Shown here: one piece after another, positions 17,821-38,616 of the stretch
Position numbering within the stretch: position 1 is the first letter of the stretch
Layout: the number at the start of each line of letters is the position of its first letter
Translations under genes and position numbers: made by a program
Notes under the pieces: generated by a model
The model's input: the letters and a program-made list of their open reading frames with translations, nothing else
The model's database searches: none
Told to the model about the DNA's origin: nothing
Assembly (NCBI GenBank): GCA_000091205.1
Contig: AP006493.2
Length of the DNA stretch: 64,000 nucleotides
Direction: 5' to 3' (one strand)
From: Cyanidioschyzon merolae
Taxonomy: Eukaryota

Positions 17821-17950
17821 ATGGCTCACCACCCAGCGCTACAGCTTCTGGTGCACTGCAACAGCTTCTGGTGCACTGCAACAGCTTCTGGTGCACTGCA
17901 ACAGCTTCTGGTGCACTTCAACAGCTTCTGGTGCACTTCAACAGCTTCTG
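17821..17950. repeat. 20-bp minisatellite (CAGCTTCTGGTGCACTGCAA)x6, with the last units diverged
   Basis: Direct reading. It lies in the 5' flank of the seryl-tRNA synthetase gene and about 235 bp beyond the right end of Fanzor copy 2. Confidence 0.9.
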
Positions 17951-18184
17951 GTGCGAAGCGCAAGCACGAAGGGCGCTTGTACTGAGCGTTCGCCGGCGAT
18001 GATCCGGGGCGCCGGCACGCCGCATGAAGAGGTGCTCGGGTGGATCGCGGGATACTGCACCTATGGCTGGAGTGGGGATCTGACGCCCGTGAAAGAAATT
18101 GGACCTGCATAACCACCCAGACGTTATAGATGAGGACAACGATACATGTTTGATGGCCATGGAGGGTGAATATGTATGTATTTA

Positions 18185-18385
18185 CGCGCAGAGGCCTCGC
18201 AGCCTTTTTTGACTGGCCGCCTTCGATCAGTTTCAGCTTCTCGTTGTATCCGATGAGCCTGAGAGGCTGCCCAACCAAGTCACATCGCGTCAGCTCTTGG
18301 GGTATCGTTTTCAGCACCGCACATAGCCTGATATTGAGTACAGCGTTAAAATCCCGGTTCACGAACATCTCGCGTTTATAGCCTC
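18185..18385 (-). ncRNA. candidate omega-RNA scaffold of copy 2; the putative guide is the flank below 18185 (minus-strand reading: taaatacatacatattcaccctcc…)
   Basis: Its reverse complement aligns with 9480-9676 and 55700-55896, and the conservation boundary falls at the same place. Confidence 0.3.
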
Positions 18386-19297
18386 TGTTAGAACGCGCCA
18401 TTGCAAAGAAAGCTGGAACTCGTGCCCTCATTGCCATTTGGTGCTCAGTCAGCTCTCTGTCATTTTCTATCGCACAAGCGATCCACTGGCGTGTCTCTAT
18501 GCCGGCCGTCTGAAGTGCATATGCCCGCTCGTCCCAGAGATTTTTTAATCTTTGAAAGCGGCCGCACTTGTACACACCCATAGGTGAGGAACTTCTCGGA
18601 AAGACAAGGATTTACGCAGGATAGACGAAAGATGCTTCGGTGCTACCGTGGTGGAAGCTTTTGCGATTCGCCCATCGGAGCTATTATGATATGTGTCATG
18701 ATAGAAAACGCTCCTTCTATAGATATGGACCTCGGAGCCTAAGGAGGAATGAAAAGCAGCTCTGTCCCCGATAGAATCAGCAAAAGCTCGAAAGAGAATG
18801 TTGAAAGGCCACGGTGTCCAATAGATGCACGTCGCAAGAAGTCAGAGAACAATCTTCCATGATTCGACGAGTTGGGAGCTAATGTATACGCCCTCTCTAC
18901 GAGAGAAACTGAGGCCGACAAATGCATCTACCAAAGTTCGAACAGATGATGATGTCGGTGCTCTCTTCGAGTTCGTTGTACGTACAAAGAACTCCGTCTC
19001 TGCGAATACCCGTATACGCTTCGACCGTCTCATCCGAGGAAAGTATGATCGACTGAAAAAAAACAACCGACGTTCCTGTGCTTCATGCAGATCGCAACGT
19101 TCCAGGAACACTAGAGTTGCGATTTCGATGGACCATGACCGGGTGTGAACCAGGACTCTTTTTATGCGACTGTATCCGAGTGCTTTCAGGGCTGCACGAA
19201 CAAGATCTTGAGAATCAGAAATGCCACTGCTGGCTATGATCATCGCTTTCGCTTTTCTTACGATGATCAACGGGTCGTTTTCTACCATTGACCGCAA
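18300..19297 (-). pseudogene. truncated and decayed Fanzor nuclease ORF of copy 2 (C-terminal RuvC-III portion plus an upstream segment shared with copy 3)
   Basis: ORF 18842..19297 (minus) has …VRAALKALGYSRIKRVLVHTRSWSIEIATLVFL…, matching …VRVALETLGHSYVKRVLVHAQSSSTEIGTLVFL… in copy 3. No RuvC-I motif is present. The listed ORF 17826..18581 reads through the element end into the minisatellite and is spurious beyond about 18185. Confidence 0.45.
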
Positions 19298-20283
19298 GCA
19301 CCTTCAAGAATATCAGAGTTTGTCCCAGAGAGCATATCCTTCCTTCTTTCAGTGTCCCTGTATCGTCAGAATACAATGGTATGCCTGACATGAAAGATGA
19401 ATGCAGTCCTGCGCTGCACTGCTCAGTAAAGAATATATATGTATCATACAGGCAATTCGACTAGGATCTAAACCGATACATCGCATTTTTTGTTTTCGAT
19501 CTCCTGCGACACACCAAATCGGGGATGAAACACTTTTGACTTGAAAGACGCTACGAGGCCTTGAGTTTTAAACTAGCGTGTTCTGCATACACATCAAAGA
19601 GCATTTCCCGATTTCTCATTTCTTGACGAAGGTTATCGCGCCATGCATTCGTAGTATTCGACCCGCACTTGAAGTACCTACCGGTCAGGTTTGAAGTCCA
19701 ACGGATGCGACATACTGCGTCCCGACTTTGCTCTAGGCAAGCCTGAATGGGACCGGACTCGCTTCAGCGGCTCCCTTAAACAGCCTCTCGCATTCCAAAG
19801 GCCGGACTTGTTCCTTCGCTGAGGCGCTGGAACACATCTCCCGTACCGTGCAAACTTTAAAATGGAAAAAATGCTACGCTCCACGTCTTGCGACCCGAAA
19901 CTGCGTCGTCTCCGCAGTGCGTTGGGCAGGCGTTGCGCCCAGAGAGATGCACTGACTTTCGTTAAACTCCAGCCGCATCTCGAAAATACAAGAATCGATA
20001 CTCGCTGTGTCTGTCACTTGGTGGCAGTTTATGCGCCCAAGTAACGAGGAACCGACAACGATGCGGTTCACTGAGGTCTAACCTGCAAGCACCAACGCAC
20101 AGATCGAAAGCCGCATGTGCGGCAGTGCAAGGCCGGAGGCGCTTCAACCCTGCCCCAGCTGATACTTTTTGACGCCTTCATCACAGCGCATGAAACGCTG
20201 AGCTTGCCTTTATCGCACCTGGACGCTAAGAATGTCCTATTCCTCGAACAACTTCAAACAGCGCAGCGCTGGACCAGGAACGC

Positions 20284-22362
20284 TCATGATAGGAAACTCT
20301 GGATGACGGCGTCGACAGCACTCGGGTCCGCAAGGGTGCTCAGGTCGCCGAGAACACTGCGGTCCAAGTCCCGACCCTGTTCGGAGATTTTTCGCAGAAT
20401 TCGCCTCATGATCTTTCCACTGCGAGTTTTGGGCAGTGCTGGCGTCCAGATGATGCGCTCTGGTGCGGCAAAGGCGCCAATCTCTTTGCGACACGTCTGC
20501 ACAAGTTCGTTGCGCAGTGTATCGCTCGGTGTATAGCCATCAGCCAAGATAACGAAGCACGCAATACATTCGCCCTTGATCTCGTGCGGCATACCAACAA
20601 CTGCTGCCTCAGCAACTGCGGGATGCCGTACCAGTGCGCTTTCCACCTCTGCGGTGCCGATTCGATGTCCGCTCACATTAATGACATCGTCGACTCGTCC
20701 AGTGATCCAGATATATCCATCACCGTCGCGGCGGCAGCCATCGCCAGTCATGTAATAGCCGGGGAACGGTTTGAAGTAGCCGTTCTCGAAGCGCGCTTGG
20801 GCTCCGAATATCGTGCGCAGGCACGAGGGCCACGGATCACGGATGCAGAGATATCCCTCACTTTCTTGGCCGGGTACAAAGGGGATCTCCTTGCCCCGGT
20901 CATCAAGCACCGCCAATCGAATACCGAAAAACGGTACACCTGCTGATCCAGGTTTTTGTTGAAAGCCACGAACTGGAGGCGAGATCACAACGTGTGCGCC
21001 AGTCTCTGTCTGCCAGTAGGTGTCGACAACATTGCAACGACTGTCGCCGACCACCTGATGGTACCACTCCCAGACCTGCGGGTTAATGGGTTCCCCAACG
21101 GTGGCCAGGATCTTGAGGGACGTCCGTTTGTATCTTTTGACGTACTCGTCGCCGGCCTTTTTCAGGGAACGTATCGCAGTTGGCGCCGTGTACAAGTGCG
21201 TCACCTGATATTTGTCGACAATGGCCCAGAGTCGCCCGGGATCCGGCCATGTCGGGACACCCTCGAAAAGCACCTGGGTCGCAGCATTGAGCATGGGTCC
21301 GTACACTACGTAACTGTGGCCCGTGATCCACCCGCAATCAGCGGTGCAAAAGTACACATCACCGGGCTGGTAATTGAACGAGTACTTGAATGTGAGCGCG
21401 GCATTAACCATGTAGCCGCCCGTGGTATGCAGGACACCCTTGGGTGTCCCAGTGCTGCCCGAGGTGTACAGAAGAAAGAGCGGATCTTCGGCTTTCATCC
21501 ACTCAATGGCATCATCAGGTCCAGAGACAGCCTCTTCCATGGCAACGCGAAGGTCAACATCGCGTCCGGCCTGCATCGTCAAGTTTGGTAGCATCGATTC
21601 ACCCAAACGCCGCAGCACCAACTGGCAAGAAACGTGGAAACTGGGATCCCTCGTTTGGCATATTTCGATCGCTTCATCGACCGTCGCTTTCAGTTCGATT
21701 CGTTTCGGGCCACGTCTGATGCCATCACAAGAGAGGATCACCGCCGATCTGGCATCGAGAAGCCGCCCTGCAAGCGCCTCAGCGGAGAAGCCCCCAAACA
21801 CTACATTGTGAACGGCTCCAATACGCGCACATGCCAACATCGCGGCTGGTAGCTCGGGCACCATTGGCATGTAGATCGTAACGGTATCCCCGCGCCGCAC
21901 ACCCTGTCGACGCAGCACTCGAGCGATCCGTTTCACCATATCTAGCAGCTCGGCATAGGTTATCGCACGATGTGTATCCATGTCGTCCATATCGTTTGCC
22001 TCACAGTAGAGCGCAACCCTATTGCCTAGCCCTTGTTCAACATGGCGGTCAAGCGCGTTGTAGCAGATATTAGTCTCTGCTCGGAAAAACCATTCGACTT
22101 GAATGGGTCCTTGGCGCACGTCAAAGTTATAGCGGTAGACGCTGTCTGGTGTGATTGCATTAGGGTCCCGCCAATAGAAGTTATTCCTCGCCATTTCTAA
22201 CCAAAACCCAGTAGGGTCACGTAAGGAACGCGTGTACATTTCGCAGTAAGTCTCATAGTCAGGAATATGGAACGCAGAATTGCGCAGGTACTCTGGCGAC
22301 GCCGAAACGCCGCTAGCACGCAGCGTCGACGCCAACGCAGCGTCAACTTCCTGGGGCGGCAT
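20284..22362 (-). CDS. ACS: acetyl-CoA synthetase (AMP-forming)
   Basis: LLYTSGSTGTPKGVLHTTGGYMV, YWQTETGAHV and the C-terminal GKIMRRILRKI are diagnostic. The listed ORF begins at a non-ATG codon at 22665; the first ATG that agrees with homology (MPPQEV…) is near 22362. The stop codon is TGA. Confidence 0.9.
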   Translation of the reverse strand: MPPQEVDAALASTLRASGVSASPEYLRNSAFHIPDYETYCEMYTRSLRDPTGFWLEMARNNFYWRDPNAITPDSVYRYNFDVRQGPIQVEWFFRAETNICYNALDRHVEQGLGNRVALYCEANDMDDMDTHRAITYAELLDMVKRIARVLRRQGVRRGDTVTIYMPMVPELPAAMLACARIGAVHNVVFGGFSAEALAGRLLDARSAVILSCDGIRRGPKRIELKATVDEAIEICQTRDPSFHVSCQLVLRRLGESMLPNLTMQAGRDVDLRVAMEEAVSGPDDAIEWMKAEDPLFLLYTSGSTGTPKGVLHTTGGYMVNAALTFKYSFNYQPGDVYFCTADCGWITGHSYVVYGPMLNAATQVLFEGVPTWPDPGRLWAIVDKYQVTHLYTAPTAIRSLKKAGDEYVKRYKRTSLKILATVGEPINPQVWEWYHQVVGDSRCNVVDTYWQTETGAHVVISPPVRGFQQKPGSAGVPFFGIRLAVLDDRGKEIPFVPGQESEGYLCIRDPWPSCLRTIFGAQARFENGYFKPFPGYYMTGDGCRRDGDGYIWITGRVDDVINVSGHRIGTAEVESALVRHPAVAEAAVVGMPHEIKGECIACFVILADGYTPSDTLRNELVQTCRKEIGAFAAPERIIWTPALPKTRSGKIMRRILRKISEQGRDLDRSVLGDLSTLADPSAVDAVIQSFLS

Positions 22363-22853
22363 CAGCGACGTTGTGGCTCGCGACCTCTCCACCCTGTGTG
22401 CACACGCCCGTAGTTCTCGAATTATGCCCCGCTGCCGATGCACAGTTCTGAATCTGAGCACTCGCTGGTTGCAGGGGAAGCAACGCCGCTGCTTCCCAGG
22501 AACGTCAAAGCCCCGAGCGCGAACTTGAACTGGGAGCTGGACAAGGCCAACGAATGCTGCCTGAATGAGTCCGGTACTAGGCATGCAGTTGCTCGCAGAG
22601 GGTATGCTCTCGGCACGGGTTGCTTTGAAAACCAGCGCTCGCTGTCGTGCGATAAGGGTACGCACCGGAGAGTAAACGCTTGGAATGGGTAAATTTAGAA
22701 TGGAGACGCTTTCGCGACGAAGGCGCAGGTGCGTTATCAGGTCGCCGGCGTATGCGCAGGGCTGCTACGGACAGCGCGTGGTCGCTTCGCGGCGTCGGGG
22801 TACCGAGATCGATGTCCTTAAAGTGCAGTTATGTACAGAAACATCCGTTGGGC

Positions 22854-25438
22854 TATAATTATACAACTATATCCTATTTGTTTCCGTTCGTGTTCGCACA
22901 GGCACTCAGTGCCCGGCACGCACCGCGAGCGACTGGAGCACTGTCGCGCACAGCTCTGATGCTGGCAAAGATAGCTCGCGATACGCCGCATTATTTCTAC
23001 AAAGCAGTCATTCTGTGGACACTACGACAATACACCGCCTGTATCGTTATCGGTATCCTGAACATCGTGCGCCCGCACCAAAACACGTTCAACAATCTCT
23101 ACGCAACTGCCTACTCGCCAAGCCATTCCAGCTTATGCCTTCTCGAAGGAATGCCGCGCAACAGGCGCCAGCATCTGAGGTTCGCGTACCGTTGCATCGC
23201 ACGACGACAACGAGACATTGAGGGTCAGCGCAGAAGGCAGGTTTCTGTGCGAGACCGTCGCGCTGCGCACATGACGCCGTCAATGGCGTCCCTCAAGGAG
23301 CATACATATCCCAGAAGCGACAGGAGTTCACCTCGCTCGATTCCAGTCCACGACGGGAGCACTGCTTGGCCTGTATGCAGGCAACCAAAACGTGGCAATC
23401 CGCTGTTCGCAAGGAAGCGACATGCGCGTACGACAAAAAGAACAGCACCAACAACAACAGCGGCAGCAGCAGCAGCAGCCCAGGAGCCGATGCTGGCGAG
23501 CGGTCGCCTACAAACCGCCACACAGACGGCGTCGTTCCTCACCTCATCCTGCGTTGAAACATTTCGAGGCTTCTCCATCGCGCTTGCTGATGCCCTGTCC
23601 TTGGACAGCGCCGCCTAGCACAGCACGGGAGAAGCACCGGCGTACGCATCTGGGATTCGTGTTCAGCTGCTCTTTGTAGCAGTTTGTTTTCCGCGGCCTC
23701 ATCCAGCGGCATGCGGCCTGTCTCTGCGTCGCCAACAACCGTTTCTACGCCCACGGACACGTTTCGAAAACACGACTCGCTCGCGTCCCCGGCACCGAGA
23801 CAAGCCGGACGCCGTGAGCGATAGCGTAGCACCGTCCCCGAGAGACTCTCGCCTCCTTGATGGACGTCGCGTCCGAATGGTCGCTGAACCGTGATGCCTG
23901 GCTTCCCGGCATCTCGCGCTACTCCGTTTCCGTAAATAGCGCTGGGCAGCGCATACCAGACTGCCTCCGGGAACGTGAGCGCCCCCCGCTCCCTCAACAG
24001 TCTAGTGGATATGGTCCATGGTTACGAGACCAGGACCCATGAGGGTACCCGCTGAGACACTCTTTGTCGCGTGTGGCCTTCCTGGTGCGCGATGCCCGGT
24101 CTATCTACGCAGCAACCAGGACACATTCGTACTGCTCCGCAGCGGGCATCGGCCGAGCTCGTCCAAGCTCTTTCGCCTACGCGCTCGGAGCCCAAAGACG
24201 TTTACAGCGACCACGGACACTGACCGAATATCACTTTGGATGTGCTCTGTGAGACCCAGGCCTGCGTCTCGAAACAGGACTCGATTTACGCCCATAGAGA
24301 TAGATGAAGAGCAAGTATTCAGGGCGGGCGTGGATCCCGAGTTCGAGTGCGTCACGACTGCCGCCGTGCCTCCAGCCCAGCGGGGCAGAACCGGCGATCA
24401 GCACCGCGAGCAGGTGTCGCTGCTCAGCCTGCTCCACGACTCGGTACCAGCGGGCGTCGTGCACCACACACACACCAGGAGGCGTACCAGCAGGTGCAGT
24501 GACTACCTCAGGGGCTATCTCGGCAATCAAAGCATCCTATCGAGCAGCGGCGGATGCTTCGTGCAGTGCACTCAGAGCGCCTATACGAGCGTCCGAATGC
24601 AGCACGCGGACGCTTTTCGACACAGGTACATGACACCGTGCTGCTGTCGCCAATGGCATCGATTGTGCGGAGCCAAGGAGCGTACATCCACACCGCCTAG
24701 TTCGGTGCGTCGGAAACGGGAATCATCGACGAGGCGCGCGGTATGCCTGAAACCTCTGGTACGGGGTGTGCTTTTGGAGCACACGGGCTGCACTCGTGCT
24801 CCTTCGATGCGAGCGTGCGACAGGCACAAGAATCGATTCCGTACAGATCCCGTCGACGAATGCACGACAACATACAAGTATCACGAACTGGGGTTCAGCC
24901 TAATCCAGTTCGAGAAGAAAAAGAGCATGAAACAGAGATCAATGCACGGGATGGTGTACGGGACGCCGAACGAACGTCAGATGGCGACAGCGTCAAAGTT
25001 CGGTGACCTCGTAGAGCCTGAAACAGAGACCAATGCACCAGGTGGTGTACGGGACGCCGAACGAACGTCAGATGGCGACAGCGTCAAAGTTCGGTGACCT
25101 CGTTTGGTGCGAATGTGCCAGCACCTAGGCGCCCAGGCTCTTTCCATACTACGACTTGAGCCGCTCGATCAACACGCGGAAGCGAGTCTTGGTTTGAGTC
25201 GAGCGAGCTTTCGACGCAGTCGTTCAGTACTCAGTATCGGTGCGCTGCTGAAACGCTGATGACGCTCGATGGAAAACTCAGTGGTCAGCAGAGAGGGAGT
25301 TGGATTCCAGACTGGAGCAAGGCACTGGTATGGTGCGGTTGGGAAATCCCGCAATGCGAGAGCGGCTTGGGTATGCTCTGAAGACGATGTTCTTTGCCAA
25401 CAAGCGAGCGATAATGATGCTCCGTTATTCGATGTTCG
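22854..25438. repeat. large direct repeat DR1, copy A (about 2.59 kb, non-coding as far as I can tell)
   Basis: About 98-99% identical to 29305..31887. It contains a (CAA/CAG)n tract near 23440 and a 91-bp tandem duplication at 24930..25104. The listed ORFs inside it are low-complexity. Confidence 0.85.
24930..25104. repeat. tandem duplication of about 91 bp inside DR1 (also present in copy B at about 31380-31560)
   Basis: The unit aaacagaga(t/c)caatgcac…gatggcgacagcgtcaaagttcggtgacctcgt occurs twice head-to-tail. Confidence 0.7.
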
Positions 25439-26053
25439 TTCGCATCAGTACACCATGATTCGCGAGACAGACTCGCACCACCAGCGCATCCAGTCCGCCC
25501 AGCACCTGACCATGGGCAGCAAGTTACGTCATGTGGACTCACATTCACAAGAAAAATGAGGATGCTGTCATGTCAACCGCGGGCGATCGCGTTGCCAGTG
25601 AACTTGGGCTAAACTCTCCCATTATGAAGATTGCGGTTCGAAGCAAGCGTTTCGGGGATGGGATACCGGCGTGATGCCACGCCTAGGCGCGATACGGTTG
25701 CGATGTGACGAACCGATGCTCGCATACACAGCAACGGCACCAGTCAAAGGCAATACCTTTTCGACAGCCTCCGTCCGATCGCTCGTCGCACAGAGAACCT
25801 AGACGCTCTGATGTACGCTAAAACGAATGCGCATATCTACAGCAATGCATGGTGTACGCTCCCAAAGCCTGTTGCAGCTCGGCAGGTATAGCCTGCCTGA
25901 CATGTATGTAGCGGAATCGATACTCCACGAGCTTGTCCACATGTCATGCTTGCCCGGACAGCTGGACGAGCTGAACAGGCGTGGAAATGAGCGCTTTATC
26001 CATGAACCTGCATCACTACCGTTCCAACTTCCGCATTAGATGATGCGCATGGA

Positions 26054-27367
26054 ATGCTCTTTCAACATATGCGTGGAGGAAAACGTGTGGAGTCACTGCT
26101 CCGCCGCCTCGCTCGCTATCTATCCAGGGGCGCTGCTATTGCTGGCTTGCTTCTCTGTTGCCTCTGGGTGACTTCGTACCTGGTGCGCTCGCCTAGCACC
26201 GGGCTGCGTGTTCCCGACGCGAATGACGGTCGCGCAGGTGCTGGAGCAGCTGCGCTCTCAGAGCCCCTGGTCAGCACAACAACAACAACAACTGGGGACA
26301 CGGCGCGACGCCAGGTCGCCGACGATGCTGTGACCTTTGCACTCGTTGTCATCAACCACGGCAGCGTACCTTTCTTTCTGAACTGGGTTTGTCACTACCG
26401 TTGCGTGCTTCAGTCGCAGTTCCTCGCGGGCACCGTGCGGCTTCCGGTGACCGTCCGGGCAAGAGCCACCGACGGTAAAGTCCTCGACTGGTTACGGCAG
26501 CGGAGCCTGGACACTCCATGGCTCCGGATACGAGCAGCCCGTGCCCCTCTTGCTAGGGCAGTCGCTTCCTATCAAGCTATGAAAGCGTCAAACAGTCTCT
26601 TTTATGAAATTGAAAGACAAAAATTCTCGGCAGTGCATGCAATGTTTGCGCGGACGACGCACCTTCCATCTCGATTCTATCTGCTCGTCTGCGATGTCGA
26701 TGTAGTGTTTCTGCACGAGCCAGTTAGAGCCATACTTAGATACGGCGACGCTGACCTCTACATGCAGTGCGATGGATGCAACACCGAGCTGTACGGGGCG
26801 CAGCAGGTGCAGTGCCCCTATGAGTACAACACAGGTTTCATGCTCTTTGCCGTTGATCAGCGAACCCGCAGCGGCAGATTACGATTTCAGGCGATACGAC
26901 AACTGATTGCAGAGGTTGTTCACGAGTCCATTAAGACAGAGCGCGCACGTCAACTACAACCTGAACGAAAGTCTGTACACGATCAATTCATTTTCAACAA
27001 GGTTCTGAAGAAATGGACTCATAACCATATGGTACAGTTACGTTCACCGTATGAGAACATGACGTCTATCGCAGGAATAGAGTATGTGCGCCCACGCATC
27101 ATGTATCTCCCGTATGAGGTGTTCCCGAACGGATGTGTGTTGTTTGGATACCGGCATCGCGAGCCGTCTCCAGCTGTTCGTGCCCTGCTCGAGAGAGGCC
27201 TCGTCGTGGCTGTACATGCAAACTATCGAAATGGCGCCTCTGAAAAATGGAGGGCGCTTCGCAGTGTGAATCTAACGATCGCATCGACACAGGAAGAGTC
27301 GCTCAACGCTCAGTTATGTCCTCCGTGCGATGAAATCCAAGCTACAGCATCAACGGGGCACATGTAG
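26054..27367 (+). CDS. type-II membrane glycosyltransferase, nucleotide-diphospho-sugar transferase (GT77/PF03407-like)
   Basis: An N-terminal signal-anchor segment, then FALVVINHGSVPFFLNWVCH, a DxD-type motif (CDVDVVF) and a C-terminal HANYRNGASEKW, which together resemble GT77-family transferases. The family assignment is from memory. Confidence 0.5.
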   Translation: MLFQHMRGGKRVESLLRRLARYLSRGAAIAGLLLCCLWVTSYLVRSPSTGLRVPDANDGRAGAGAAALSEPLVSTTTTTTGDTARRQVADDAVTFALVVINHGSVPFFLNWVCHYRCVLQSQFLAGTVRLPVTVRARATDGKVLDWLRQRSLDTPWLRIRAARAPLARAVASYQAMKASNSLFYEIERQKFSAVHAMFARTTHLPSRFYLLVCDVDVVFLHEPVRAILRYGDADLYMQCDGCNTELYGAQQVQCPYEYNTGFMLFAVDQRTRSGRLRFQAIRQLIAEVVHESIKTERARQLQPERKSVHDQFIFNKVLKKWTHNHMVQLRSPYENMTSIAGIEYVRPRIMYLPYEVFPNGCVLFGYRHREPSPAVRALLERGLVVAVHANYRNGASEKWRALRSVNLTIASTQEESLNAQLCPPCDEIQATASTGHM

Positions 27368-28186
27368 ATTCGCGAAAGCCACAGAACGCCGGGCAACGTG
27401 TCTACATGCTTGCTGCTAAGGCGCTCTATCCACTGGTGTCCGCAACGATGGTGCATTTCGCGCTCGTGGCATGCTTTTGCGCGTTCCTGACAACGCTAAC
27501 AGCTTGCCGGCTGTCGCTTGGGTAAAGTCGCTTCTGTGCCGGAAATCCCTGCACAATGTCCGTGACAATTTCCTAAAGCGTTCATGAAAGCTCTGATCGG
27601 GGATTAACAGTTGAGCGAATGGCATCGAGCGGCCAGCGTCGGTGTGCATCCTAGCTATCGCGTTTTGTCCACTTCATACGGGATTGGCATCTGCGGCTCC
27701 CTCCGCTGCGCTCTCCATTCATCCATGACCGATGCTTGAGCAACTTCATTTCGTGAAGTTTCAACGGAGTAAGCGCTAGCGCCGCAAATGCTCGCTCGTG
27801 CTCACCTACGTGGCAGATCTCAGAGAGGCACCACGCGATTGACTTCTCCTGACGTGACATTCTGCGCCAAGTCGGCAAGCGTGCCGCGCTCCAGCCTCCA
27901 TGACGGAAGTTGGGCGTCTTCCCGTCTCTGCTTTCTGCTATGCTTCCATACAGGTCGACAAGAGTCACTGAGAAAATGCGATTAGCACGGATCTACCCCC
28001 TGATGCGCCAGCAGCGGTGCTTGCTGCTTTCAGACATCTCTCGACGAGGCCACACAAATGCTGTCATCCGCTCCGTCTTGATGATTTCGGCACTAATAGG
28101 TGATCCTGCAAGGGTCCAACGCCCACTTATACAGCGTAGATGCTACCTATGAATGCCAGGTTCTCTAAGCTGTCACTTACAGACGC

Positions 28187-29176
28187 CTACACCGAATCGC
28201 GAAGAAGCTTACGGTCCTTAGCGGCAGCTTCGCGTTCTCGTCGCTCGAGATGCCGTTTCCAACCTCGATGCTTTTTCATTGACGCGTCGCGCTCCTTCTG
28301 CAACTGGTCTCGAATCATGCTGCGTTTCCAAAAGAAGGGACGCGTCTTCCTACCGGCAGCAAGCTGCTCAGTCTCTTCTCGTTTGTGGCGTCTAAGTAGC
28401 GCTTGGAAGCTCTCGGTAACTTCGTCTCGTCGAACTTGATTCTGACGTCGGTCGACTTCGGAGCGCAACTCCTTGTGCAGCGAGCGCAGCGTATCGCGTT
28501 CGGATTCATGGGCAATTTTCAACCGCTTCTCTAGAGCGGCTAGCTTAATTTTTGCTTCATCCAAAGCTTTTCGACGAAGGTCTCGGAGAAAACTGTATCG
28601 CTGCTCGAAGACGTTCTCATCGAATCGGCCGCAGAGCGGGTCAAACCGAGGATCAACCGGTTTCGCAACCCGCTGGCTTACAACTTGGCGCGCGTTTCGC
28701 GTAGAGAGCTTACCTCCTGCATCCATAACAGCTGGTGCGTTCTTATGAGGTCTGCGCAAGCCGTTGTCCGCCGAGCTTTCAGTGGTTCGCACGCTGCCTT
28801 CCTCCTGCTTCTTCTGGCGCAGTTGGCGCACGTGTTCGGCTAAAGTGCGTACTGCTTCACTGGACTGTTCCTCTGATTTGAAGGGTTTCGTAGGGCCCGC
28901 CCCCTCACGCGCTCCGCGCTGAAACTTTTGCGATACGAGTGCGGGAATGGCGCTCATCGCGCTCGAGACTTCTGCAGCGAGCGGGCCGGAGCTCGTGCTT
29001 CGACCAGTTCGCTGCAGCACCTGAGGTCGCGACTGTGCTGCCTTCTCGGACGGTTGCACAGTAGCTGGCGCACCACCGGTCCTTGAGCGCTTGTTCTCCA
29101 TCCAAGAGTTACAAGGGCGCACGTTGCTGCTTGACGTGCACCAGTACTTGACACCGTACGGTGGCTTGAATTGCAA
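28187..29176 (-). CDS. RRP36: rRNA biogenesis protein RRP36-like (DUF947)
   Basis: The basic, coiled C-terminal half carries …PVDPRFDPLCGRFDENVFEQRYSFLRDLRRKALDEAKIKLAA…, typical of RRP36. The true start may be an internal ATG. Confidence 0.5.
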   Translation of the reverse strand: MQFKPPYGVKYWCTSSSNVRPCNSWMENKRSRTGGAPATVQPSEKAAQSRPQVLQRTGRSTSSGPLAAEVSSAMSAIPALVSQKFQRGAREGAGPTKPFKSEEQSSEAVRTLAEHVRQLRQKKQEEGSVRTTESSADNGLRRPHKNAPAVMDAGGKLSTRNARQVVSQRVAKPVDPRFDPLCGRFDENVFEQRYSFLRDLRRKALDEAKIKLAALEKRLKIAHESERDTLRSLHKELRSEVDRRQNQVRRDEVTESFQALLRRHKREETEQLAAGRKTRPFFWKRSMIRDQLQKERDASMKKHRGWKRHLERREREAAAKDRKLLRDSV

Positions 29177-29304
29177 TAGTTTTCGGGTAGCTGCTCAGGC
29201 GCCATACTGGCAGCAGCACAGCAGTCGATGAGGAATATGCATATTTATACAGCGATGTCTAGTAATGTCGCGGACGCTTCCTTGCAAGGAGTTGTGCATC
29301 TGGA

Positions 29305-31887
29305 TATAATTATACAACTATATCCTATTTGTTTCCGTTCGTGTTCGCACAGGCACTCAATGCCCGGCACGCACCGCGAACGACTGGAGCACTGTCGCGC
29401 ACAGCTCTGATGCTGGCAAAGATAGCTCGCGATACGCCGCATTATTTCTACAAAGCAGTCATTCTATGGTCACTACGACAATACACCGCCTGTATCGTTA
29501 TCGGTATCCTGAACATCGTGCGCCCGCACCAAAACACGTTCAACAATCTCTACGCAACTGCCTACTCGCCAAGCCATTCCAGCTTATGCCTTCTCGAAGG
29601 AATGCCGCGCAACAGGCGCCAGCATCTGAGGTTCGCGTACCGTTGCATCGCACGACGACAACGAGACATTGAGGGTCAGCGCAGAAGGCAGGTTTCTGTG
29701 CGAGACCGTCGCGCTGCGCACATGACGCCGTCAATGGCGTCCCTCAAGGAGCATACATATCCCAGAAGCGACAGGAGTTCACCTCGCTCGATTCCAGTCC
29801 ACGACGGGAGCACTGCTTGGCCTGTATGCAGGCAACCAAAACGTGGCAATCCGCTATTCGCAAGGAAGCGACATGCGCGTACGACAAAAAGAACAGCACC
29901 AACAACAACAGCGGCAGCAGCAGCAGCAGCCCAGGAGCCGATGCTGGCGAGCGGTCGCCTGCAAACCGCCACACAGACGGCGTCGTTCCTCACCTCATCC
30001 TGCGTTGAAACATTTCGAGGCTTCTCCATCGCGCTTGCTGATGCCCTGTCCTTGGACAGCGCCGCCTAGCATAGCACGGGAGAAGCACCGGCGTAGGCAT
30101 CTGGGATTCGTGTTCAGCTGCTCTTTGTAGCAGTTTGTTTTCCGCGGCCTCATCCAGCCGCATGCGGCCTGTCTCTGCGTCGCCAACAACCGTTTCTACG
30201 CCCACGGACACGTTTCGAAAACACGACTCGCTCGCGTCCCCGGCACCGAGACAAGCCGGACGCCGTGAGCCAGAGCGTAGCACCGTCCCCGAGAGACTCT
30301 CGCCTCCTTGATGGACGTCGCGTCCGAATGGTCGCTGAACCGTGATGCCTGGCTTCCCGGCATCTCGCGCTACTCCGTTTCCGTGAATAGCGCTGGGCAG
30401 CGCATACCAGACTGCCTCCGGGAACGTGAGCGCCCCCCGCTCCCTCAACAGTCTAGTGGATATGGTCCATGGTTACGAGACCAGGACCCATGAGGGTACC
30501 CGCTGAGACACTCTTTCTCGCGTGTGGCCTTCCTGGTGCGCGATGCCCGGTCTCTGTACGCAGCAACCAGGACACATTCGTACTGCTCCGCAGCGGGCAT
30601 CGGCCGAGCTCGTCCAAGCTCTTTCGCCTACGCGCTCGGAGCCCAAAGACGTTTACAGCGACCACGGACACTGACCGAATATCACTTTGGATGCGCTTTG
30701 TGAGACACAGGCCTGCGTCTCGAACCAGGACTCGATTTACGCCCATAGAGATAGATGAAGAGCAAGTATTCAGGGCGGGCGTGGATCCCGAGTTCGAGTG
30801 CGTCACGACCGCCGCCGTGCCTCCAGCCCAGTAGGGCAGAGCCAGCGATCAGCACCGCGAGCAGGTGTCGCTGCTCAGCTTGCTCCACGACTCGGTACCA
30901 GCGGGCGTCGTGCACCACACACACCAGGAGGCGTACCAGCAGGTGCAGTGACTACCTCAGGGGCTATCTCGGCAATCAAAGCATCCTATCGAGCAGCGGC
31001 GGATGCTTCGTGCAGTGCACTCAGAGCGCCTATACGAGCGTCCGAATGCAGCACGCGGACGCTTTTCGACACAGGTACATGACACCGTGCTGCTGTCGCC
31101 AATGGCATCGATTGTGCGGAGCCAAGGAGCGTACATCCACACCGCCTAGTTCGGTGCGTCGGAAAAGGGAATCATCGACGAGGCGCGCGGTATGCCTGAA
31201 ACCTCTGGTACGGGGTGTGCTTTTGGAGCACACGGGCTGCACTCGTGCTCCTTCGATGCGAGCGTGCGACAGGCACAAGAATCGATTCCGTACAGATCCC
31301 GTCGACGAATGCACGACAACATACAAGTATCACGAACTGGGGTTCAGCCTAATCTAGTTCGAGAAGAAAAAGAGCATGAAACAGAGATCAATGCACGGGA
31401 TGGTGTACGGGACGCCGAACGAACGTCAGATGGCGACAGCGTCAAAGTTCGGTGACCTCGTAGAGCCTGAAACAGAGACCAATGCACCAGGTGGTGTACG
31501 GGACGCCAAACGAACGTCAGATGGCGACAGCGTGTAAGGTCGGTGACCTCGTTTGGTGCGAATGTGCCAGCACCTAGGCGCCCAGGCTCTTTCCATACTG
31601 CGACTTGAGCCGCTCGATCAACACTCGAAAGCGAGTCTTGGTTTGAGTCGAGCGAGCTTTCGACGCAGTCGTTCAGTACTCAGTATCGGTGCGCTGCTGA
31701 AACGCTGATGACGCTCGATGGAAAACTCAGTGGTCAGCAGAGAGGGAGTTGGATTCCAGACTGGAGCAAGGCACTGGTATGGTGCGGTTGGGAAATCCCG
31801 CAATGCGAGAGCGGCTTGGGTATGCTCTGAAGACGATGTTCTTTGCCAACAAGCGAACGATAATGATGCTCCTTTATTTGATGTTCG
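29305..31887. repeat. large direct repeat DR1, copy B
   Basis: Collinear with 22854..25438. It begins about 130 bp upstream of the RRP36-like start codon. Confidence 0.85.
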
Positions 31888-32320: not shown

Positions 32321-33769
32321 TCAGTATGCAATGCTTGTTATCGCTGTCGACGCTGGACTATCGATATGAGCACTGTTGTTGTTGCAGTCCTCTGGAGCAG
32401 CGGTTTCCGACTCCGACTGCATTGCCATCCAGGTGGTATTGACGTACCAGGGGTCCAGGGTGCTTTCTGCAACTTGTGGTAAAAAAGTCTCCCAGGAAAA
32501 GTTGCTTTTGACGGAGCTGTTGCGACGGATTCGAGTCTGTTCGTCAGTTGCTTGCTGAACTCGTTTCCGCCATTCCTTGCTCCGCGGAACACCCCAGAAA
32601 AGGTTCAGAATCGGTTTGAGAAGAACATGGAGGCTTGGCGTCCACTGCGATCCGCGGCTGCAGGATTCCCGCTCATCCGTTTCCTGTCCATAAATAGAGG
32701 CCGCATGCAGTTGCTTATCCACGTAGGCTCCGTAAGCTTGCAGTACGTCTCGGCGTGTTCGCTGCGCACATGAGTCGTCGCCGAAAATGACCGCATCCAC
32801 GCCCGCAAGCGCTTCCCACGGGTGATTCATGACTGCTCGCCCAACCATAACACCATATAGATGTTCGGTGTCAAGAAAATGACGCACCTGGGGCATGGTA
32901 CGTATGCCACCATTTATACTGAAATGCAGATGAGGGAAATCGCGCGCAAGTGCCAAAACTCGATCGTACCGCAGCGGTGGTACCGTGCGGTTTTCTGCTG
33001 GACTGAGGCCCTTCAGGTACGCCTTTCGTGCGTGGATAATGAAATGTCGCACGGGTGCATTTTCAGACACAACTTGCACAAAGTCGCGAGCGAACGAATA
33101 CGTATCAAGATCGTCGACACCAAGGCGGCACTTCACGGTTATTGGTGTTGAGGCTGGTACTACTTCCGCGATCGCTCGGCAGAGTGCAGCGACCCCGGGC
33201 GCATCTTTCATGAGTGCCGCCCCAAAGCAACCACGCCCCGCTACCCTATCAGACGGACACCCGCAGTTGATGTTAATGGCGCTATAGCCGTAGGGGGCAG
33301 CGATTTCGGCGGCAGCACGCATCTTTTGTGGATCGCTTCCCCCGAGCTGGAGTACAATCGGCTGTTGCGCGGGATGGAAAGCGAGCCAGTGATCAGCATT
33401 ACTAGCATTATATACAAGGGTAGAGTCAACGACCATTTCAGTGTAAAGAAGTGCATGCTTGCTCAGTAGTCGACAAAGCGTGCGAAAATGGTTGTCGGTT
33501 ACGTCCATCATGGGCGCCACGGAAAAGGCGTCCGCAGGGCGCGACATTTGCAGCGTAGCGTGCTGCCTCGTGAACGAACGAATGCGCGGGGTAGTGTTTG
33601 GAAAAAAGGGCCCGGCCACGTACGCGCTCCGCGCAACGCTCACAGCCAAGAAACGACTGTGGAGGGGTCGCTCGAACTTACGGTGCGTCAGACAGCGTGT
33701 TGAGCGTTTCAGCGGCCCCAGCAGCTGTCCTGTGACAAGGTGCTGGTAGCCAACCAGAGCCATGCCCAA
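32321..33769 (-). CDS. tRNA-dihydrouridine synthase (DusA-type) with an N-terminal extension of about 90 aa
   Basis: PMMDVTDNHFRTLCRLLSK…LYTEMV, QLGGSDP and NINCGCPSDRVAGRGCFGAALM are classic Dus motifs. The extension may be an organellar presequence. Confidence 0.8.
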   Translation of the reverse strand: MGMALVGYQHLVTGQLLGPLKRSTRCLTHRKFERPLHSRFLAVSVARSAYVAGPFFPNTTPRIRSFTRQHATLQMSRPADAFSVAPMMDVTDNHFRTLCRLLSKHALLYTEMVVDSTLVYNASNADHWLAFHPAQQPIVLQLGGSDPQKMRAAAEIAAPYGYSAININCGCPSDRVAGRGCFGAALMKDAPGVAALCRAIAEVVPASTPITVKCRLGVDDLDTYSFARDFVQVVSENAPVRHFIIHARKAYLKGLSPAENRTVPPLRYDRVLALARDFPHLHFSINGGIRTMPQVRHFLDTEHLYGVMVGRAVMNHPWEALAGVDAVIFGDDSCAQRTRRDVLQAYGAYVDKQLHAASIYGQETDERESCSRGSQWTPSLHVLLKPILNLFWGVPRSKEWRKRVQQATDEQTRIRRNSSVKSNFSWETFLPQVAESTLDPWYVNTTWMAMQSESETAAPEDCNNNSAHIDSPASTAITSIAY

Positions 33770-34207
33770 TCACGTCGACCCGCAAACGCACTAGCCCGCT
33801 GATGCCAACTAGTGTACCACCGTCGTTTTGTGCGTCCTACAAGAGACGTTGCGTCGTGGAGGCGGCACCACGAAACGCCCACACCACCGCATGGACATGC
33901 ACCACGGTGCCGGCACGCTGGACACGCCAATATGCAATAGCGTTCAAACTGAATTTTTCTGTATGTTTTGGATCAATATGGACAGGATTGATGCGGTCGC
34001 CATCAACCCTTGCAAAGTTGAAACTAGATCTTTCTGTAATTTTTGCGTTCAATACGGACATGCTTGCTGCAAGAGCCATCGATACTTGTCGGGTGTCGCC
34101 ACTGCTGCGATCCCGTAAACTTGTCGTGCGGCGCAGTATACGGGGCAGCGCCGGGCAGAGGATTCAGGAGCAGTTCGCATCTGTTTTACGAGGAGGTCGA
34201 AATAACC

Positions 34208-34801
34208 ATGGCAAGCCTCTCAGATCAAAGCGGTTCGATCGGAAGCGAACAGACGAGGCCTTCGGGCGCTATACCTGTCGAATCGTTGCCACCCCAAGCG
34301 CTGGAGCAGCTCATCGCCTCTCTGCAACAGGAGGTCGAGCAACTCGCCGACGCGTTGCAACAACTCAACTTTGCAAACCAGCGTTGGACACTATGTAAGC
34401 AGTCGATTGAAGCTTTTGCAGAAGAGACCACGCGGGTAGACTTGCCTGGCGCTCAAAGCCGTGCTACGGACGCCATTTCGTCAACCGCGAGCGCTAAACC
34501 AGAAACCTCTGTGGAAGTGAACCAAAATCAGCGTTTACTCGTTCCACTGAGCCGGTCTTTGTACGTACTTGGACGAGTCATCAATCCTGAACGCTGTCTC
34601 ATCGACATTGGCACCGGGTACCACGTTGAACGGAAACTCGCGGACGCAGCCGAATTTTTCGACAGACGTCTGAAGCACGTCCGGGGAAGCATGCGACAGC
34701 TAACACTGAAGATTGATCAAAACCAGCAACAAATGCAGACCATTCGCGAGATTCTGGTTCGAAAACTGGCTGGTGCACAGCAAGCCGCAGAGCATACTTG
34801 A
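34208..34801 (+). CDS. PFDN5: prefoldin subunit 5 (alpha-type)
   Basis: LLVPLSRSLYVLGRVINPERCLIDIGTGYHVERKLADAAEFF, flanked by coiled-coil segments. The start was moved to the first ATG that agrees with homology (MASLSD, 34208) within the listed ORF 34043..34801. Confidence 0.7.
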   Translation: MASLSDQSGSIGSEQTRPSGAIPVESLPPQALEQLIASLQQEVEQLADALQQLNFANQRWTLCKQSIEAFAEETTRVDLPGAQSRATDAISSTASAKPETSVEVNQNQRLLVPLSRSLYVLGRVINPERCLIDIGTGYHVERKLADAAEFFDRRLKHVRGSMRQLTLKIDQNQQQMQTIREILVRKLAGAQQAAEHT

Positions 34802-37053
34802 GGTAGTCGGAAAGCCGGTTACTTGCGAGCAGGTGCAGCGCCAGATTTCGAGCCCAGTCGTGGACAACACTGCTTGTGGGCCGCTCGGCTGACGACTCAC
34901 GACGGTGAAACAGGCCGCGCATGCCTCTCTGTGCAATAGATGGGCGGGGAGCAACTCATCAAAGCGCTTGATGCTGTCGCCAGCATGCCGAGGCGATGTG
35001 AAACACACGCGGCTTACGAAATGGAAACGAGTGAGGGCATATCGTGAAGGGCAAGCGCGCACGCTTTATGCGTTTCTCGTCCACCTCGCCAATGGTAATG
35101 CATCTGCCATCCAGCAAGGTGCAGTGCGCAGTTCGATTCAGTCATGATGCGGACACTGCGTCGACCCGAGCAGGCGGGAAGGAAACTGTTCCGGGCGCTC
35201 TCGATTATTCCGTGCACGGATCATATGTCCAGCGACAAGTGCCCTATTTGTGAGCAGGGAAGCCAGTCGCCTCGAGTTTACGCGCACAAGGGCACGGCAA
35301 GGCTGACCTGTCTCGGTGCTGCGTCCATGACGGCACCTCAGGCTTTAATGCGGACGCGTACGGCAGGCTCTGCGCCCTGGGGATCTGACGAAGGAACCAT
35401 TATCCTCAGAGGCGAGCCAGCATCATCGTGGCCCATGCAACGTGAAAGCCTCTTGCGGGATGACGGGTGGCTCCCCAGATGCCGATCGCCATCGCGCAGT
35501 ATGGCGGATCCCTGATTCGAGTAAACGATCCAACATCCCCAAAAATAAGGAAAATCAGCCTCCTAGCATGATGCCTCCCGTAACCTTGCCCAGGCATCAA
35601 TTCGCTTGCTATTGTCAGAGTATCGTATCATTTGTGCCGGTGGGTGGACTGCACCGGTGAATCGTCGCATGCCGCCACCTTGGAGGACGTACCCGGTAAA
35701 CCTGGTCGCATCATCTGTGGCCACAGATCGATCACAGCTACTGCGCGCTCCATGCAGTCGCTTCATAACGTAGTATTTCGTCGATGCTGTGAAGACTTGC
35801 CGCATGCACAGCGACTGATTCGCCTATCACGTCACCGAACTGCTACGCAGGCCTTTCTTCGGGAGCGCATGCACCGCGTGCCCCGAGTTCGACAGATGCA
35901 ATAGCGATGCAACGGACGCCAAATCGCTCCGTTCGTTCGCGAGAGAGCAATGGCACTCGCGAGACCTCTGTGGCGCTCACAAAACCATAGCATCATGCCA
36001 GGACATGCTGCACTTGGCGAGCGGTGCTATGCAACGCTGGCGAACTTGCGGCAACGACATTGCCATAACCGGGTGGCTCCCGAAAACCACCGACCGGATC
36101 GAGAAGCAGCTGGTACACAGTTCGAACTTTCTTATCTTTGCGCAGGAGTCCGAATAGCTCTACGAGCATACATAGCGGTTCAGGATAAACAGGGACTCGG
36201 CAAGCACACCAGAATTTGTTGTCATTGGAGTGTTCAGGCTGGTGCTTGCGACTTACGCGCTCTGCTGTGAAAAGTCAAGTTTTGGCGCACTGCCACCCTT
36301 TTCAGCCAAAGCCCAGAATCCGTCGATAATTGCTCGGTTCCGGGTCCATGAACATCGCCGACTATAGCCTTCATTCACTTCTACTGGCCAAGCTTGCTCC
36401 AGTCTGAGCTGGGCGTTCAGTCTAAACACGCTAACCGCAAGTAGATTGCACGGTATTCGGTAGATGTTCATGAGCAATTTTGCGTTCACACATCCCGGAT
36501 GTCTGACGTTCTGTCAGGGAACCCAGCCGAGCTACATGCGACGTTCAATATCACGGTCTTTCGCAGCTCAGCAGAGCGCTCAAAGCTGACAAGCGGGTAT
36601 CGCGCGTTCCTTTCCAAGACATGGGCCCAAGAGACCCATTGGCTGATGCATACATCCAGAATCTTGACAAGAAGTGATATTTAGGATCAATGAGCCGTGA
36701 CGATTCATAGACAATAGACTAGCCTGGTGTCTGCTTCGTTTGGCGAAGCGTCAACGAGCTACGCTAGTGGGCGCTAGTCCATCAGCCTAGAAACGTCACG
36801 CACTGACCAACGGTGTCTTTAGGCTAGGTAAACCACACGGAACCTTGGCACAGCTCATTCTTTGCCCTGATCTTCGCAACCAGTCAACTGGTCAACGAGG
36901 ATACGCACCATCCAGCCAACCGGTTACCAGTAACGTCCGCTATGCACACAAGGAGGATTCTCTGGCGCGTGCACGCGACGGCTGCCGTCGTCAGTGCACA
37001 ACAGCCAGTGTCGACACCAGACTTGCTATTGCGGTTGCAAGTGACCACAATCT

Positions 37054-38616
37054 ATGGGGCGAAACCGGATATCGCAGCTCGCGATCGTTCAGATCTTGAC
37101 TCTCGTTGTCTACTGGCTGATCTTCGCGGTGAGTGTGCAGTCGGTTGAACCAAAGCTCTGCGGCGGAAAGCCGCTTGCCGGTGGCGGCACACTTTCCCGT
37201 CACATCAGCAGCCGAAGCACGCCCCCGGTTGGACGTCAACTGCTGGCTCTGGTCGACGGAGAGACCTCGTCGTATTCCATTCTTTTTGGTGTACTTAGAG
37301 ATAGGGGCTATACAGTGACCGTGCGCACACCAAAAGACCGTTCTCTGACACTCTGGAACGAAGCAGGAACGCACTATCTCTATGACGCGGTGCTGCTTCT
37401 GGCACCGTCCATTAAAGGATTTGGTAGGGACGGTACCGCAAATGCTTTGCTCGATTTCGTGGACGCTAATCGGACTCTGATTATGGCCGCATCACCAAAC
37501 GCTGGCGCACTCTTCAGGTCGTTGGCGGAAGGCATCGGTCTCGAGCTCGACGAGGCAGGAACAGTGCTACTGGATCACGTGCGGGCAGCGCATCGAAGCG
37601 GAGCCGGGCAGGACACCGAAGGCTCGAGGATATTTCTGGTTGATCCGAAACCTTGTCCATCCTTGGACCTGGGGGCGACCCTTCCATACTGGGAGAAGGA
37701 AATGCCCCAGCGTCCGCTACTGTTTGCCAACGCGACCGGGTCCCTGGTCGCTCCTAAGCAGGATTTGCTCCGCCCGGTACTGTGCGCACCAGCCACAAGC
37801 TACTCCTATGAAGACGGCCAAGTAGTCGAAACGGATGAGGATGCAGCGCCCTTCACCATTGGCACGGAGGCCGTTCTGGTTGCTGCGCTCCACGGCCGCT
37901 ACGGCGGACGTGTTCTATACATCGCATCGACAGAAGCGCTCCAGGATCGCTTGATGTCTGGTGAGCATGGAAACCGAGCATATTTCGAGGATCTTTTTAC
38001 ATGGGCCCTTGGGGAACGGGGGATTTTGCGGATTACCCGAGCAGAGCACCGGCATGTGCCGCAGGGAAACGAACGGCCGCGCTCTACTCCGTATCGCGTC
38101 GGAGATCGACTCCGCTTTGAGCTTTGCGTGGAAGAGTGGGACGGTCGACAGTCGCAACAGCGCTGGCGACCCTGGCTCGGAGGTAATGAACCTCAACTGG
38201 AGTGGGTCATGTTGGACCCGTATGTGCGCACGAGCCTACGAGCAACGAAGGATCAGGGCTGCTACGCCACCGAGTTTGACACACCGTCGAAGCACGGCCT
38301 CTTCAAATTCCGTATTGAGCACTTTCGCGACGGCTACACTCCACTGCTCTTGTCTCAGGTGGTGCCGATCCGTCCTTACTGGCACAACGAATATCCGCGG
38401 ATGCTGGTACGCGCGTATCCCTACTATGCAGCTTTATTTTCAACCATGATGATTTTCTGGATCATGGCCTACGCAGTTCTCTGGAAAGGGCTCGTCTCAT
38501 CGAAGCGACTTGGAATCCAGACAACATCTAGGAGTCCGCACGCGACCGTTTCTTCCAAGGATGCAGCGGCGTCCTCTACCGAAGACTCTGACGCTGACCA
38601 CCAGAAACAAGAGTAA
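37054..38616 (+). CDS. DDOST: oligosaccharyltransferase 48-kDa subunit (OST48/DDOST/WBP1)
   Basis: N-terminal signal segment; LALVDGETSSYSILFGVLRDRGYTVTVRTPKDRSLTLWNEAGTHYLYDAVLLLAPS…LIMAASPNAGALFRSLAEGIGLELDEAGTVLLDH matches the conserved luminal domain; C-terminal TM. The stop codon is TAA. Confidence 0.8.
   Translation: MGRNRISQLAIVQILTLVVYWLIFAVSVQSVEPKLCGGKPLAGGGTLSRHISSRSTPPVGRQLLALVDGETSSYSILFGVLRDRGYTVTVRTPKDRSLTLWNEAGTHYLYDAVLLLAPSIKGFGRDGTANALLDFVDANRTLIMAASPNAGALFRSLAEGIGLELDEAGTVLLDHVRAAHRSGAGQDTEGSRIFLVDPKPCPSLDLGATLPYWEKEMPQRPLLFANATGSLVAPKQDLLRPVLCAPATSYSYEDGQVVETDEDAAPFTIGTEAVLVAALHGRYGGRVLYIASTEALQDRLMSGEHGNRAYFEDLFTWALGERGILRITRAEHRHVPQGNERPRSTPYRVGDRLRFELCVEEWDGRQSQQRWRPWLGGNEPQLEWVMLDPYVRTSLRATKDQGCYATEFDTPSKHGLFKFRIEHFRDGYTPLLLSQVVPIRPYWHNEYPRMLVRAYPYYAALFSTMMIFWIMAYAVLWKGLVSSKRLGIQTTSRSPHATVSSKDAAASSTEDSDADHQKQE

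Follow-up and report, generated by a model that had tools for sequence, protein, structure and literature searches.

Results

Two direct repeats bracket a pair of host genes on chromosome 11

The locus lies on chromosome 11 (852,849 bp) of the alga Cyanidioschyzon merolae 10D, within a stretch of 64,000 nucleotides, hereafter the window. It contains two long non-coding direct repeats, DR1 copy A and copy B, separated by a spacer that carries two host genes. The copies were compared by self-BLASTN of the window and by MAFFT alignment. Numbers E1 to E6 denote members of the repeat family described further below. The features of the locus are:

20284 to 22584, minus strand: acetyl-CoA synthetase (ACS) gene, BAM80486; its ATG lies 243 bp from the family 5′ end of E2
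22851 to 25438, plus strand: DR1 copy A, element E2; family-level 5′ end at about 22827 (BLASTN, MAFFT; nhmmer against E4, E5 and E6)
24465 to 24466, plus strand: 2-bp indel, CA in copy A only in 10D; it splits in copy B an open reading frame (ORF) of 359 amino acids (aa)
24922 to 25103, plus strand: tandem duplication of a 91-bp unit in copy A (find_repeats, TRF, family alignment)
26054 to 27367, plus strand: CMK101C, GT77-like nucleotide-sugar transferase gene, in the spacer; Pfam PF03407 (Nucleotid_trans), exact match to BAM80487, syntenic in Cyanidiococcus
28187 to 29101, minus strand: CMK102C, RRP36-like gene, in the spacer; Pfam PF06102, BAM80488, syntenic in the outgroup
29302 to 31887, plus strand: DR1 copy B, element E3; family-level 5′ end at about 29278; left inversion breakpoint relative to Cyanidiococcus
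32321 to 38616, both strands: block of DUS (minus), prefoldin (plus) and OST48 (plus), inverted relative to Cyanidiococcus and flanked by E3 (plus) and E4 (minus) (tblastn on outgroup contigs L024 and L025)

The original prediction, made from the sequence alone, had reported near-identical repeats around a spacer of about 3.9 kb with a GT77-like and an RRP36-like gene, each copy lying upstream of a minus-strand gene. The pair is real: 22851-25438 and 29302-31887 are 98.45% identical (self-BLASTN and MAFFT, E = 0), the block starting 3 bp earlier than had been noted. The spacer measures 3863 bp (25439-29301), both of its genes are supported by Pfam, and the minus-strand genes are indeed ACS and RRP36. 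The distances to these genes had to be corrected, from about 490 bp to 267 bp between copy A and the annotated ACS ATG at 22584, and from about 130 bp to 201 bp between copy B and the annotated RRP36 ATG at 29101; a distance of 126-130 bp is valid only with the longest TTG-initiated ORF. The MAFFT alignment of the two copies has 2588 columns, with 38 mismatches and one 2-bp indel (the CA at 24465-24466, absent from copy B), and the copies differ at 40 positions in 10D. Both carry a short CAG run and the same 91-bp tandem duplication (31371-31552 in copy B), the unit of which is single in E4, E5 and E6 in the family alignment. The neighbor past copy B encodes the Dus-family protein BAM80489, and as the protein accessions run consecutively, there is no annotated protein gene within the DR1 repeats.

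Both copies recur at the same positions in other strains

L001, an independent metagenome contig of 33 kb whose strain shares 99.1% identity with 10D, holds both copies and the spacer. The four junctions between repeat and unique DNA (ACS/repeat 5′ end, repeat 3′ end/GT77, RRP36/repeat 5′ end and repeat 3′ end/DUS) recur in many independent assemblies, and short-read contigs typically end 35-220 bp inside the repeat, as they do for a genuine repeat. Both copies occupy identical positions in every sampled strain. A metagenome scan with a DR1 29-mer returned only the two known contexts, from a collection that held two relevant contigs.

Two contigs that depart from this arrangement were considered as variant alleles and rejected. 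In L035 (2406-4993; JGI 3300005861) the ACS flank is joined through a single repeat to the DUS flank, without GT77 and RRP36, as a deletion by non-allelic homologous recombination (NAHR) would leave it. In the same sample, however, the GT77-RRP36 spacer is found on a contig of its own (L039), edged by repeat sequence, and L035 is thus an assembler collapse. L004 was rejected as a contig lacking copy B, since the last 45 bp of DR1B run into foreign sequence of 42% GC and the contig is chimeric, at this end at least.

DR1A and DR1B are members of a dispersed family

The window was searched with nhmmer profiles, using DR1A or the whole intergenic region as query. At least six copies of the family were found, on both strands (E-values 1e-19 to 1e-102). 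In addition to E2 and E3 they are:

12963 to 14606, plus strand: E1, diverged, 5′ half only; nhmmer E = 1e-75 to E4 and 4e-41 to E2, its 3′ part absent or undetectably diverged
39336 to 42797, minus strand: E4, full-length, 3.46 kb; right inversion breakpoint
49634 to 52582, minus strand: E5, full-length, 2.95 kb; its 5′ third diverged from E4
58282 to 60735, minus strand: E6, full-length, 2.45 kb; colinear with E2 over its whole length

With DR1A as query, E4 and E5 were recovered at about 1e-63 to 1e-65, E6 at about 1e-62 and E1 at about 1e-46, all colinear, and with the whole intergenic query E6 reached E = 6e-102 (22873-25457 against 60690-58256). Full-length copies measure 2454, 2610, 2612, 2949 and 3462 bp. 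Global identity between non-neighboring copies is 53-57%, and conservation stays at about 50-65% along the whole element, without a core that stands out.

The 3′ ends of the family align at ...CGATAATGATG.TCC.T.ATTCGA, 8 bp inside the end of the DR1 block, and alignment of the 5′ ends places them about 24 bp upstream of the block start (nhmmer, E4, E5 and E6). Because the family termini coincide with the DR1 boundaries (within about 25 bp at the 5′ end and about 8 bp at the 3′ end), DR1A and DR1B are whole elements. A further 5′ extension of the homology, in the upstream flanks of E3 and E6, was dropped for low posterior support, and blastn-short was too insensitive for the element termini.

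DR1A and DR1B are thus full-length, same-orientation members of a diverged, non-coding dispersed family with elements of about 2.5-3.5 kb. The view of DR1 as a conspicuous, singular block falls with the four further diverged copies in the window, three of them full-length, and a unique segmental duplication is ruled out by the same four homologues and by the boundaries matching the family termini. Dispersed copies with defined termini, named beforehand in the original prediction as a finding that would speak against it, lie within the window itself. Among the explanations it had offered, a non-autonomous element and an NAHR substrate came near the truth, and a special regulatory or lncRNA unit found no support; its premise of a unique two-copy block did not hold, the copies being family members. 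Dispersed repeats occupy nine of the window's eleven intergenic regions that exceed 1 kb, six of the nine holding this family, two a second family and one a small third repeat.

Contig L004 (1-2563, 11921-12600) also leaves synteny inside E4, at the equivalent of position 41202, and enters a DUF547 gene that is absent from the window; this junction may be another near-identical E4-like copy elsewhere in the genome.

The elements lack coding capacity and the usual transposon termini

The longest ORF (359 aa) is found in copy A and is interrupted in copy B by the 2-bp indel. Pfam matched none of 15 ORFs, taken from five elements, above the noise level and showed no reverse transcriptase (RT) or endonuclease (EN), and among 5.8 billion proteins the 359-aa ORF matched only the same ORF in closely related metagenome strains. 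When the element ORFs were compared all-versus-all by BLASTP, sense and antisense frames matched equally weakly, and so the homology between copies is at the DNA level only. A coding element was dropped as a reading, there being no Pfam matches and no homologues beyond the orthologous metagenome ORFs. The earlier statement that the repeats have no coding capacity holds in substance, although copy A has ORFs of up to 359 aa. Rfam at the gathering threshold and an ARAGORN search for tRNAs each gave zero matches in the window.

The DR1 ends read GGCTATAATT... and ...GATGTTCG. They are not of the TG...CA type, and a search with an 8-nt seed found no terminal inverted repeats (TIRs), in agreement on both points with what had been seen from the sequence. 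No duplicated bases common to the flanks of A and B, indicative of target site duplications (TSDs), were found, and the element 3′ end (...ATTCGA) has no A-tail. Three established element classes were rejected. A long terminal repeat (LTR) retrotransposon is excluded by the ends, by the absence of a TSD and by the GT77-like/RRP36 interior, which is syntenic in an outgroup free of the repeats. A class II TIR transposon or an element resembling a miniature inverted-repeat transposable element would have a TIR (8-nt seed) and a TSD, and neither was found. An element of the non-LTR retrotransposon or short interspersed nuclear element kind is contradicted by the lack of an A-tail and of RT/EN and by E1, which lacks its 3′ part rather than its 5′ part, unlike 5′-truncated non-LTR copies.

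The elements are insertions relative to Cyanidiococcus

Cyanidiococcus yangmingshanensis (L024) and a related metagenome lineage (L025-L027) served as outgroups. The outgroup gene order is DLH, CMK096C-like, SerRS, ACS, GT77, RRP36, OST48, prefoldin, DUS and CMK109C-like. In L024, L025 and L026 the ACS-GT77 intergenic region measures 570-700 bp and the region between RRP36 and the next gene 514-560 bp, and family elements had no matches in either. The unique DNA flanking E2 in C. merolae amounts to 243 + 616 bp, and that flanking E3 to 177 + 434 bp. As the unique flanks add up to the outgroup intergenic lengths, the copies are pure insertions, made after the split from Cyanidiococcus, into intergenic regions otherwise of normal length. 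The larger genome of C. merolae has been attributed to its longer intergenic regions (PMC13353863).

The DUS-prefoldin-OST48 block (32321-38616) is inverted relative to L024 (13210-18934) and L025 (13469-19211), as determined by tblastn, and its breakpoints are occupied by E3 on the plus strand and E4 on the minus strand. Recombination between inverted copies would give just this arrangement, and the opposite orientation of the elements at the two breakpoints suggests that family copies may have served as substrates for the three-gene inversion.

Strain comparison suggests gene conversion between the copies

To the two 10D copies we added those of L001 (A and B), L014, L015 and L036 (A), L013 (B) and L035 in seven-sequence alignments; all non-10D copies come from short-read metagenome assemblies. 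Only positions 22853, 25424 and 25430 are diagnostic of copy A or B in every strain, all of them at most 15 bp from the block ends, and across the aligned strains there are none in the 2.5-kb interior. Each of three lineages has substitutions common to A and B, and 22 sites part 10D from L001 in both copies. Alleles that appear B-specific in 10D (the 2-bp deletion, 23015/23019 and 24256/24274) occur in copy A of other strains, on contigs anchored in the unique flanks (L014, L015 and L036), the deletion being found in copy A of strain L036. In 10D, A and B diverge by 1.55%, compared with 1.53% between orthologous copies of two strains that both carry both copies. Between 10D and L001, the divergence of 1.53% in the DR1 copies (22827-25438 and 29278-31887) compares with 0.80% in other intergenic DNA and 0.39% in coding sequence. 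The A-to-B and the between-strain values of DR1 are each roughly double that of other intergenic DNA.

The family holds a second direct pair, E4 and E5, in which 39341-41401 and 49643-51703 are 99.56% identical over 2061 bp with no gaps, and which flanks CMK109C and CMK110C. The near-identity covers the 3′ two-thirds of the elements, while their 5′ thirds are as diverged as other family pairs, a pattern that is hard to explain otherwise than by partial conversion of one element by the other.

For the DR1 pair, the distribution of alleles suggests an older local duplication of the whole element followed by continuing gene conversion. Before the divergence of the sampled C. merolae strains, one element would have been copied to a site at a distance of 6.45 kb, and repeated conversion (concerted evolution) would afterwards have kept E2 and E3 alike; this would account for their 98.5% identity, compared with 53-57% in other family pairs.

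The closest competitor is a single local or segmental duplication shortly before the strains diverged, with independent divergence and no later conversion. It would fit the star-like distances (40 differences between A and B of 10D, 43 between the A copies of 10D and L001 and 37 between their B copies) and the fact that most 10D differences are singletons of one copy, and merging of copies in the metagenome assemblies could mimic the shared alleles. However, copies that diverged independently should not have their three diagnostic sites all within 15 bp of the ends and none in the 2.5-kb interior, nor should alleles that distinguish A from B in 10D appear in the other copy of the flank-anchored L014, L015 and L036. 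Moreover, the partial near-identity of E4 and E5 is left unexplained by whole-element duplication. We consider a single duplication unlikely.

Other repeats and reading frames in the window

The second dispersed family, unrelated to the first, is represented by 18138-19515 and 54508-55939 (inverted; about 73% identity, nhmmer E = 4e-173) and by 9326-9682. It sits in the SerRS-ACS and BAM80494-ALG3 intergenic regions, whose outgroup counterparts are about 1 kb shorter. A fragment of it is overlapped by the 3′ end of a 286-aa ATG ORF (8566-9426, plus strand), which the NCBI 10D proteome does not include, although it has been called repeatedly in related metagenomes, and which has no match in Pfam. 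The third repeat, of about 310 bp, is found at 35236-35546 and, inverted, at 10906-11220 (nhmmer E = 1e-17); the prefoldin-OST48 intergenic region that holds it is about 1.3 kb longer than that of the outgroup. Short tandem arrays were seen at 17838-17954, just downstream of the SerRS start region, and at 61153-61276, between E6 and orf533, and the ends of the window share an inverted 85-bp match of 87% (2962-3045 and 63492-63576).

In one strain lineage (L038 2799-4054, L039 2860-4121 and L040 2612-3825) RRP36 is called with 256 aa, compared with 304 aa, and an additional overlapping ORF of 148-164 aa lies upstream of it, which suggests an N-terminal frameshift or an alternative start in that lineage.

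Discussion

We are fairly confident that DR1A and DR1B are neighboring copies of a Cyanidioschyzon-specific non-coding repeat family that were duplicated locally and homogenized by gene conversion, the family being most probably a published element. Direct repeats of 2.6 kb, together with efficient homologous recombination, would also form a substrate for loop-out by NAHR. Loop-out between direct repeats has been shown experimentally in 10D and is used there for marker removal (PMC13353863), and DR1 is therefore a credible NAHR substrate. Deletion of the spacer would remove RRP36, a loss that would probably be lethal in a haploid, and such alleles would presumably be counter-selected.

Several points weigh against parts of this picture. 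Transposition hallmarks (TSD, TIR, LTR, poly-A, ORF) were looked for and none was found. Short-read assemblies can merge near-identical repeats and thereby mimic conversion; L001's own two copies differ only at their edges, and L035 is a demonstrable loop collapse. As to the inversion, the two related outgroup lineages allow either polarity, and E3 and E4 today show no particular similarity to one another. With family copies as dense as they are, both breakpoints would fall on oppositely oriented copies by chance with a probability of about 0.05-0.1. As to the published element, whose ORF is weakly similar to a protein of white spot syndrome virus (WSSV), the 359-aa ORF had no WSSV match at E ≤ 0.01 among 5.8 billion proteins, a search in which so weak a similarity would be sub-threshold. 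A concatenated query of the three sense-strand frames gave no matches either, but it also missed the known orthologous ORFs and is uninformative. Finally, a total of 253 copies in 16.5 Mb would predict a far lower density than the six copies seen in 64 kb.

A young, mobile subfamily of non-autonomous transposable elements would make A or B a recent local transposition, with near-identical copies elsewhere in the genome. The block of identity does span the whole element, the family has spread to many sites since the Cyanidiococcus split, and the junction between an E4-like sequence and DUF547 in L004 may mark a further near-identical copy, of the other subfamily. Yet searches for TSDs, TIRs, LTRs, a poly-A tail or an element ORF were all negative, the two copies are fixed at the same sites throughout the strains sampled, and the 29-mer scan of metagenomes, which held few Cyanidioschyzon contigs, returned the two known contexts only. 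Recent mobility is in our view improbable.

We give still less credence to a selected functional unit, be it a gene for a long non-coding RNA, an upstream promoter or insulator, or a boundary element, placed head-to-head with the ACS and RRP36 promoters. In its favor, a divergently oriented start codon is found 180-515 bp from the 5′ end of each of E2, E3, E4 and E5, the published family is reportedly transcribed (PMC1955436) and H3K27me3 marks roughly half of the annotated repeats (PMC5405695). But only two of the six placements are informative on orientation (p = 0.25), family conservation is flat at about 50-65% without a core, and the copies diverge faster between strains (1.53%) than does other intergenic DNA (0.80%). 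The sister genus, moreover, has no elements at the same promoters, and Rfam gave no matches. The DR1 pair is very probably not a dedicated regulatory module. An assembly artefact, by which one real copy was duplicated in the reference, could point to the ACS-repeat-DUS join of L035 but is already refuted by the four distinct, repeatedly recovered junctions, and its probability is negligible given also the 40 differences between the 10D copies, the presence of both copies and the spacer in L001, and the separate spacer contig (L039) that makes L035 a collapsed loop.

Returning to the view of DR1 as locally duplicated and converted family members, the family has most probably already been described for the C. 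merolae genome. Nozaki et al. (2007; BMC Biol 5:28) reported a "novel interspersed repetitive element" with 253 copies, an average length of 3.2 kb and a share of about 5% of the genome, and found no LTR elements in that genome (PMC1955436). Their element is transcribed and contains a truncated ORF weakly similar to WSSV wsv486 (BLASTX 1e-5 to 4e-2; PMC1955436); Mikulski et al. (2017) refer to "WSV repeats" and found about half of the annotated ones to be marked with H3K27me3 (PMC5405695). The DR1 family is dispersed in the same genome, has elements of 2.45-3.46 kb compared with the 3.2-kb average, is intergenic, has no intact gene and, like the published element, cannot be assigned to class I or class II transposons. 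It differs in that the BLASTX similarity to wsv486 was not reproduced and in a local density about five times the published genome average. Gaps in the locus tags (CMK096C to 101C and CMK102C to 109C) leave room for features other than coding sequences at the repeat sites. Since size, dispersal, lack of genes and locus-tag gaps all fit, we think it reasonably probable that the DR1 family is the element of Nozaki et al. The supplements of PMC5405695 and PMC1955436 contain no repeat coordinates, and a literature search on the missing locus tags found nothing relevant. Another survey (PMC11050394) reports 20 families covering 72% of the genome, by a method too permissive to help here.

The main value of the analysis is that a false lead is cleared: long intergenic regions in C. 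merolae are ordinarily filled by such repeats, and a non-coding one of 2.6 kb is no oddity there. The near-identity of neighboring copies indicates active ectopic gene conversion. Potential loop-out substrates around essential genes are relevant to the design of gene targeting and to the assembly of strain genomes, for which the collapse in L035 is a warning. That family copies sit where the inversion relative to Cyanidiococcus has its breakpoints may interest researchers using this model alga. The family also looks denser here than its published count, a point relevant to the larger size of the C. merolae genome compared with the sister genera. Tentatively, and with considerable doubt, one may imagine an element without transposon hallmarks that expanded in Cyanidioschyzon, giving much of the intergenic excess of about 4 Mb over the sister genera, and that reshaped the genome by homologous recombination, with E2 and E3 evolving in concert completely, E4 and E5 over their 3′ 2 kb, and inverted copies mediating the DUS-prefoldin-OST48 inversion.

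Among known systems, an LTR retrotransposon also presents two direct repeats a few kilobases apart, but DR1 has no TG...CA ends, TSD or gag/pol, and its "internal" genes are host genes, syntenic in Cyanidiococcus without the repeats. What is expected of concerted evolution was observed, namely lineage substitutions common to both paralogues and diagnostic sites at the edges only, in short-read assemblies that may merge copies. The low-copy repeats and segmental duplications that undergo NAHR, such as human low-copy repeats and the rearrangements between yeast Ty and delta elements, resemble DR1 in being kilobase-sized direct repeats of >98% identity that flank unique genes, with evidence of sequence exchange between copies and oppositely oriented copies at inversion breakpoints. 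They differ from it in two respects: no allele with a deleted or duplicated spacer has been shown at DR1, the sole candidate, L035, being an assembly collapse, and what is repeated at DR1 is a whole element of a dispersed family rather than an arbitrary genomic segment.

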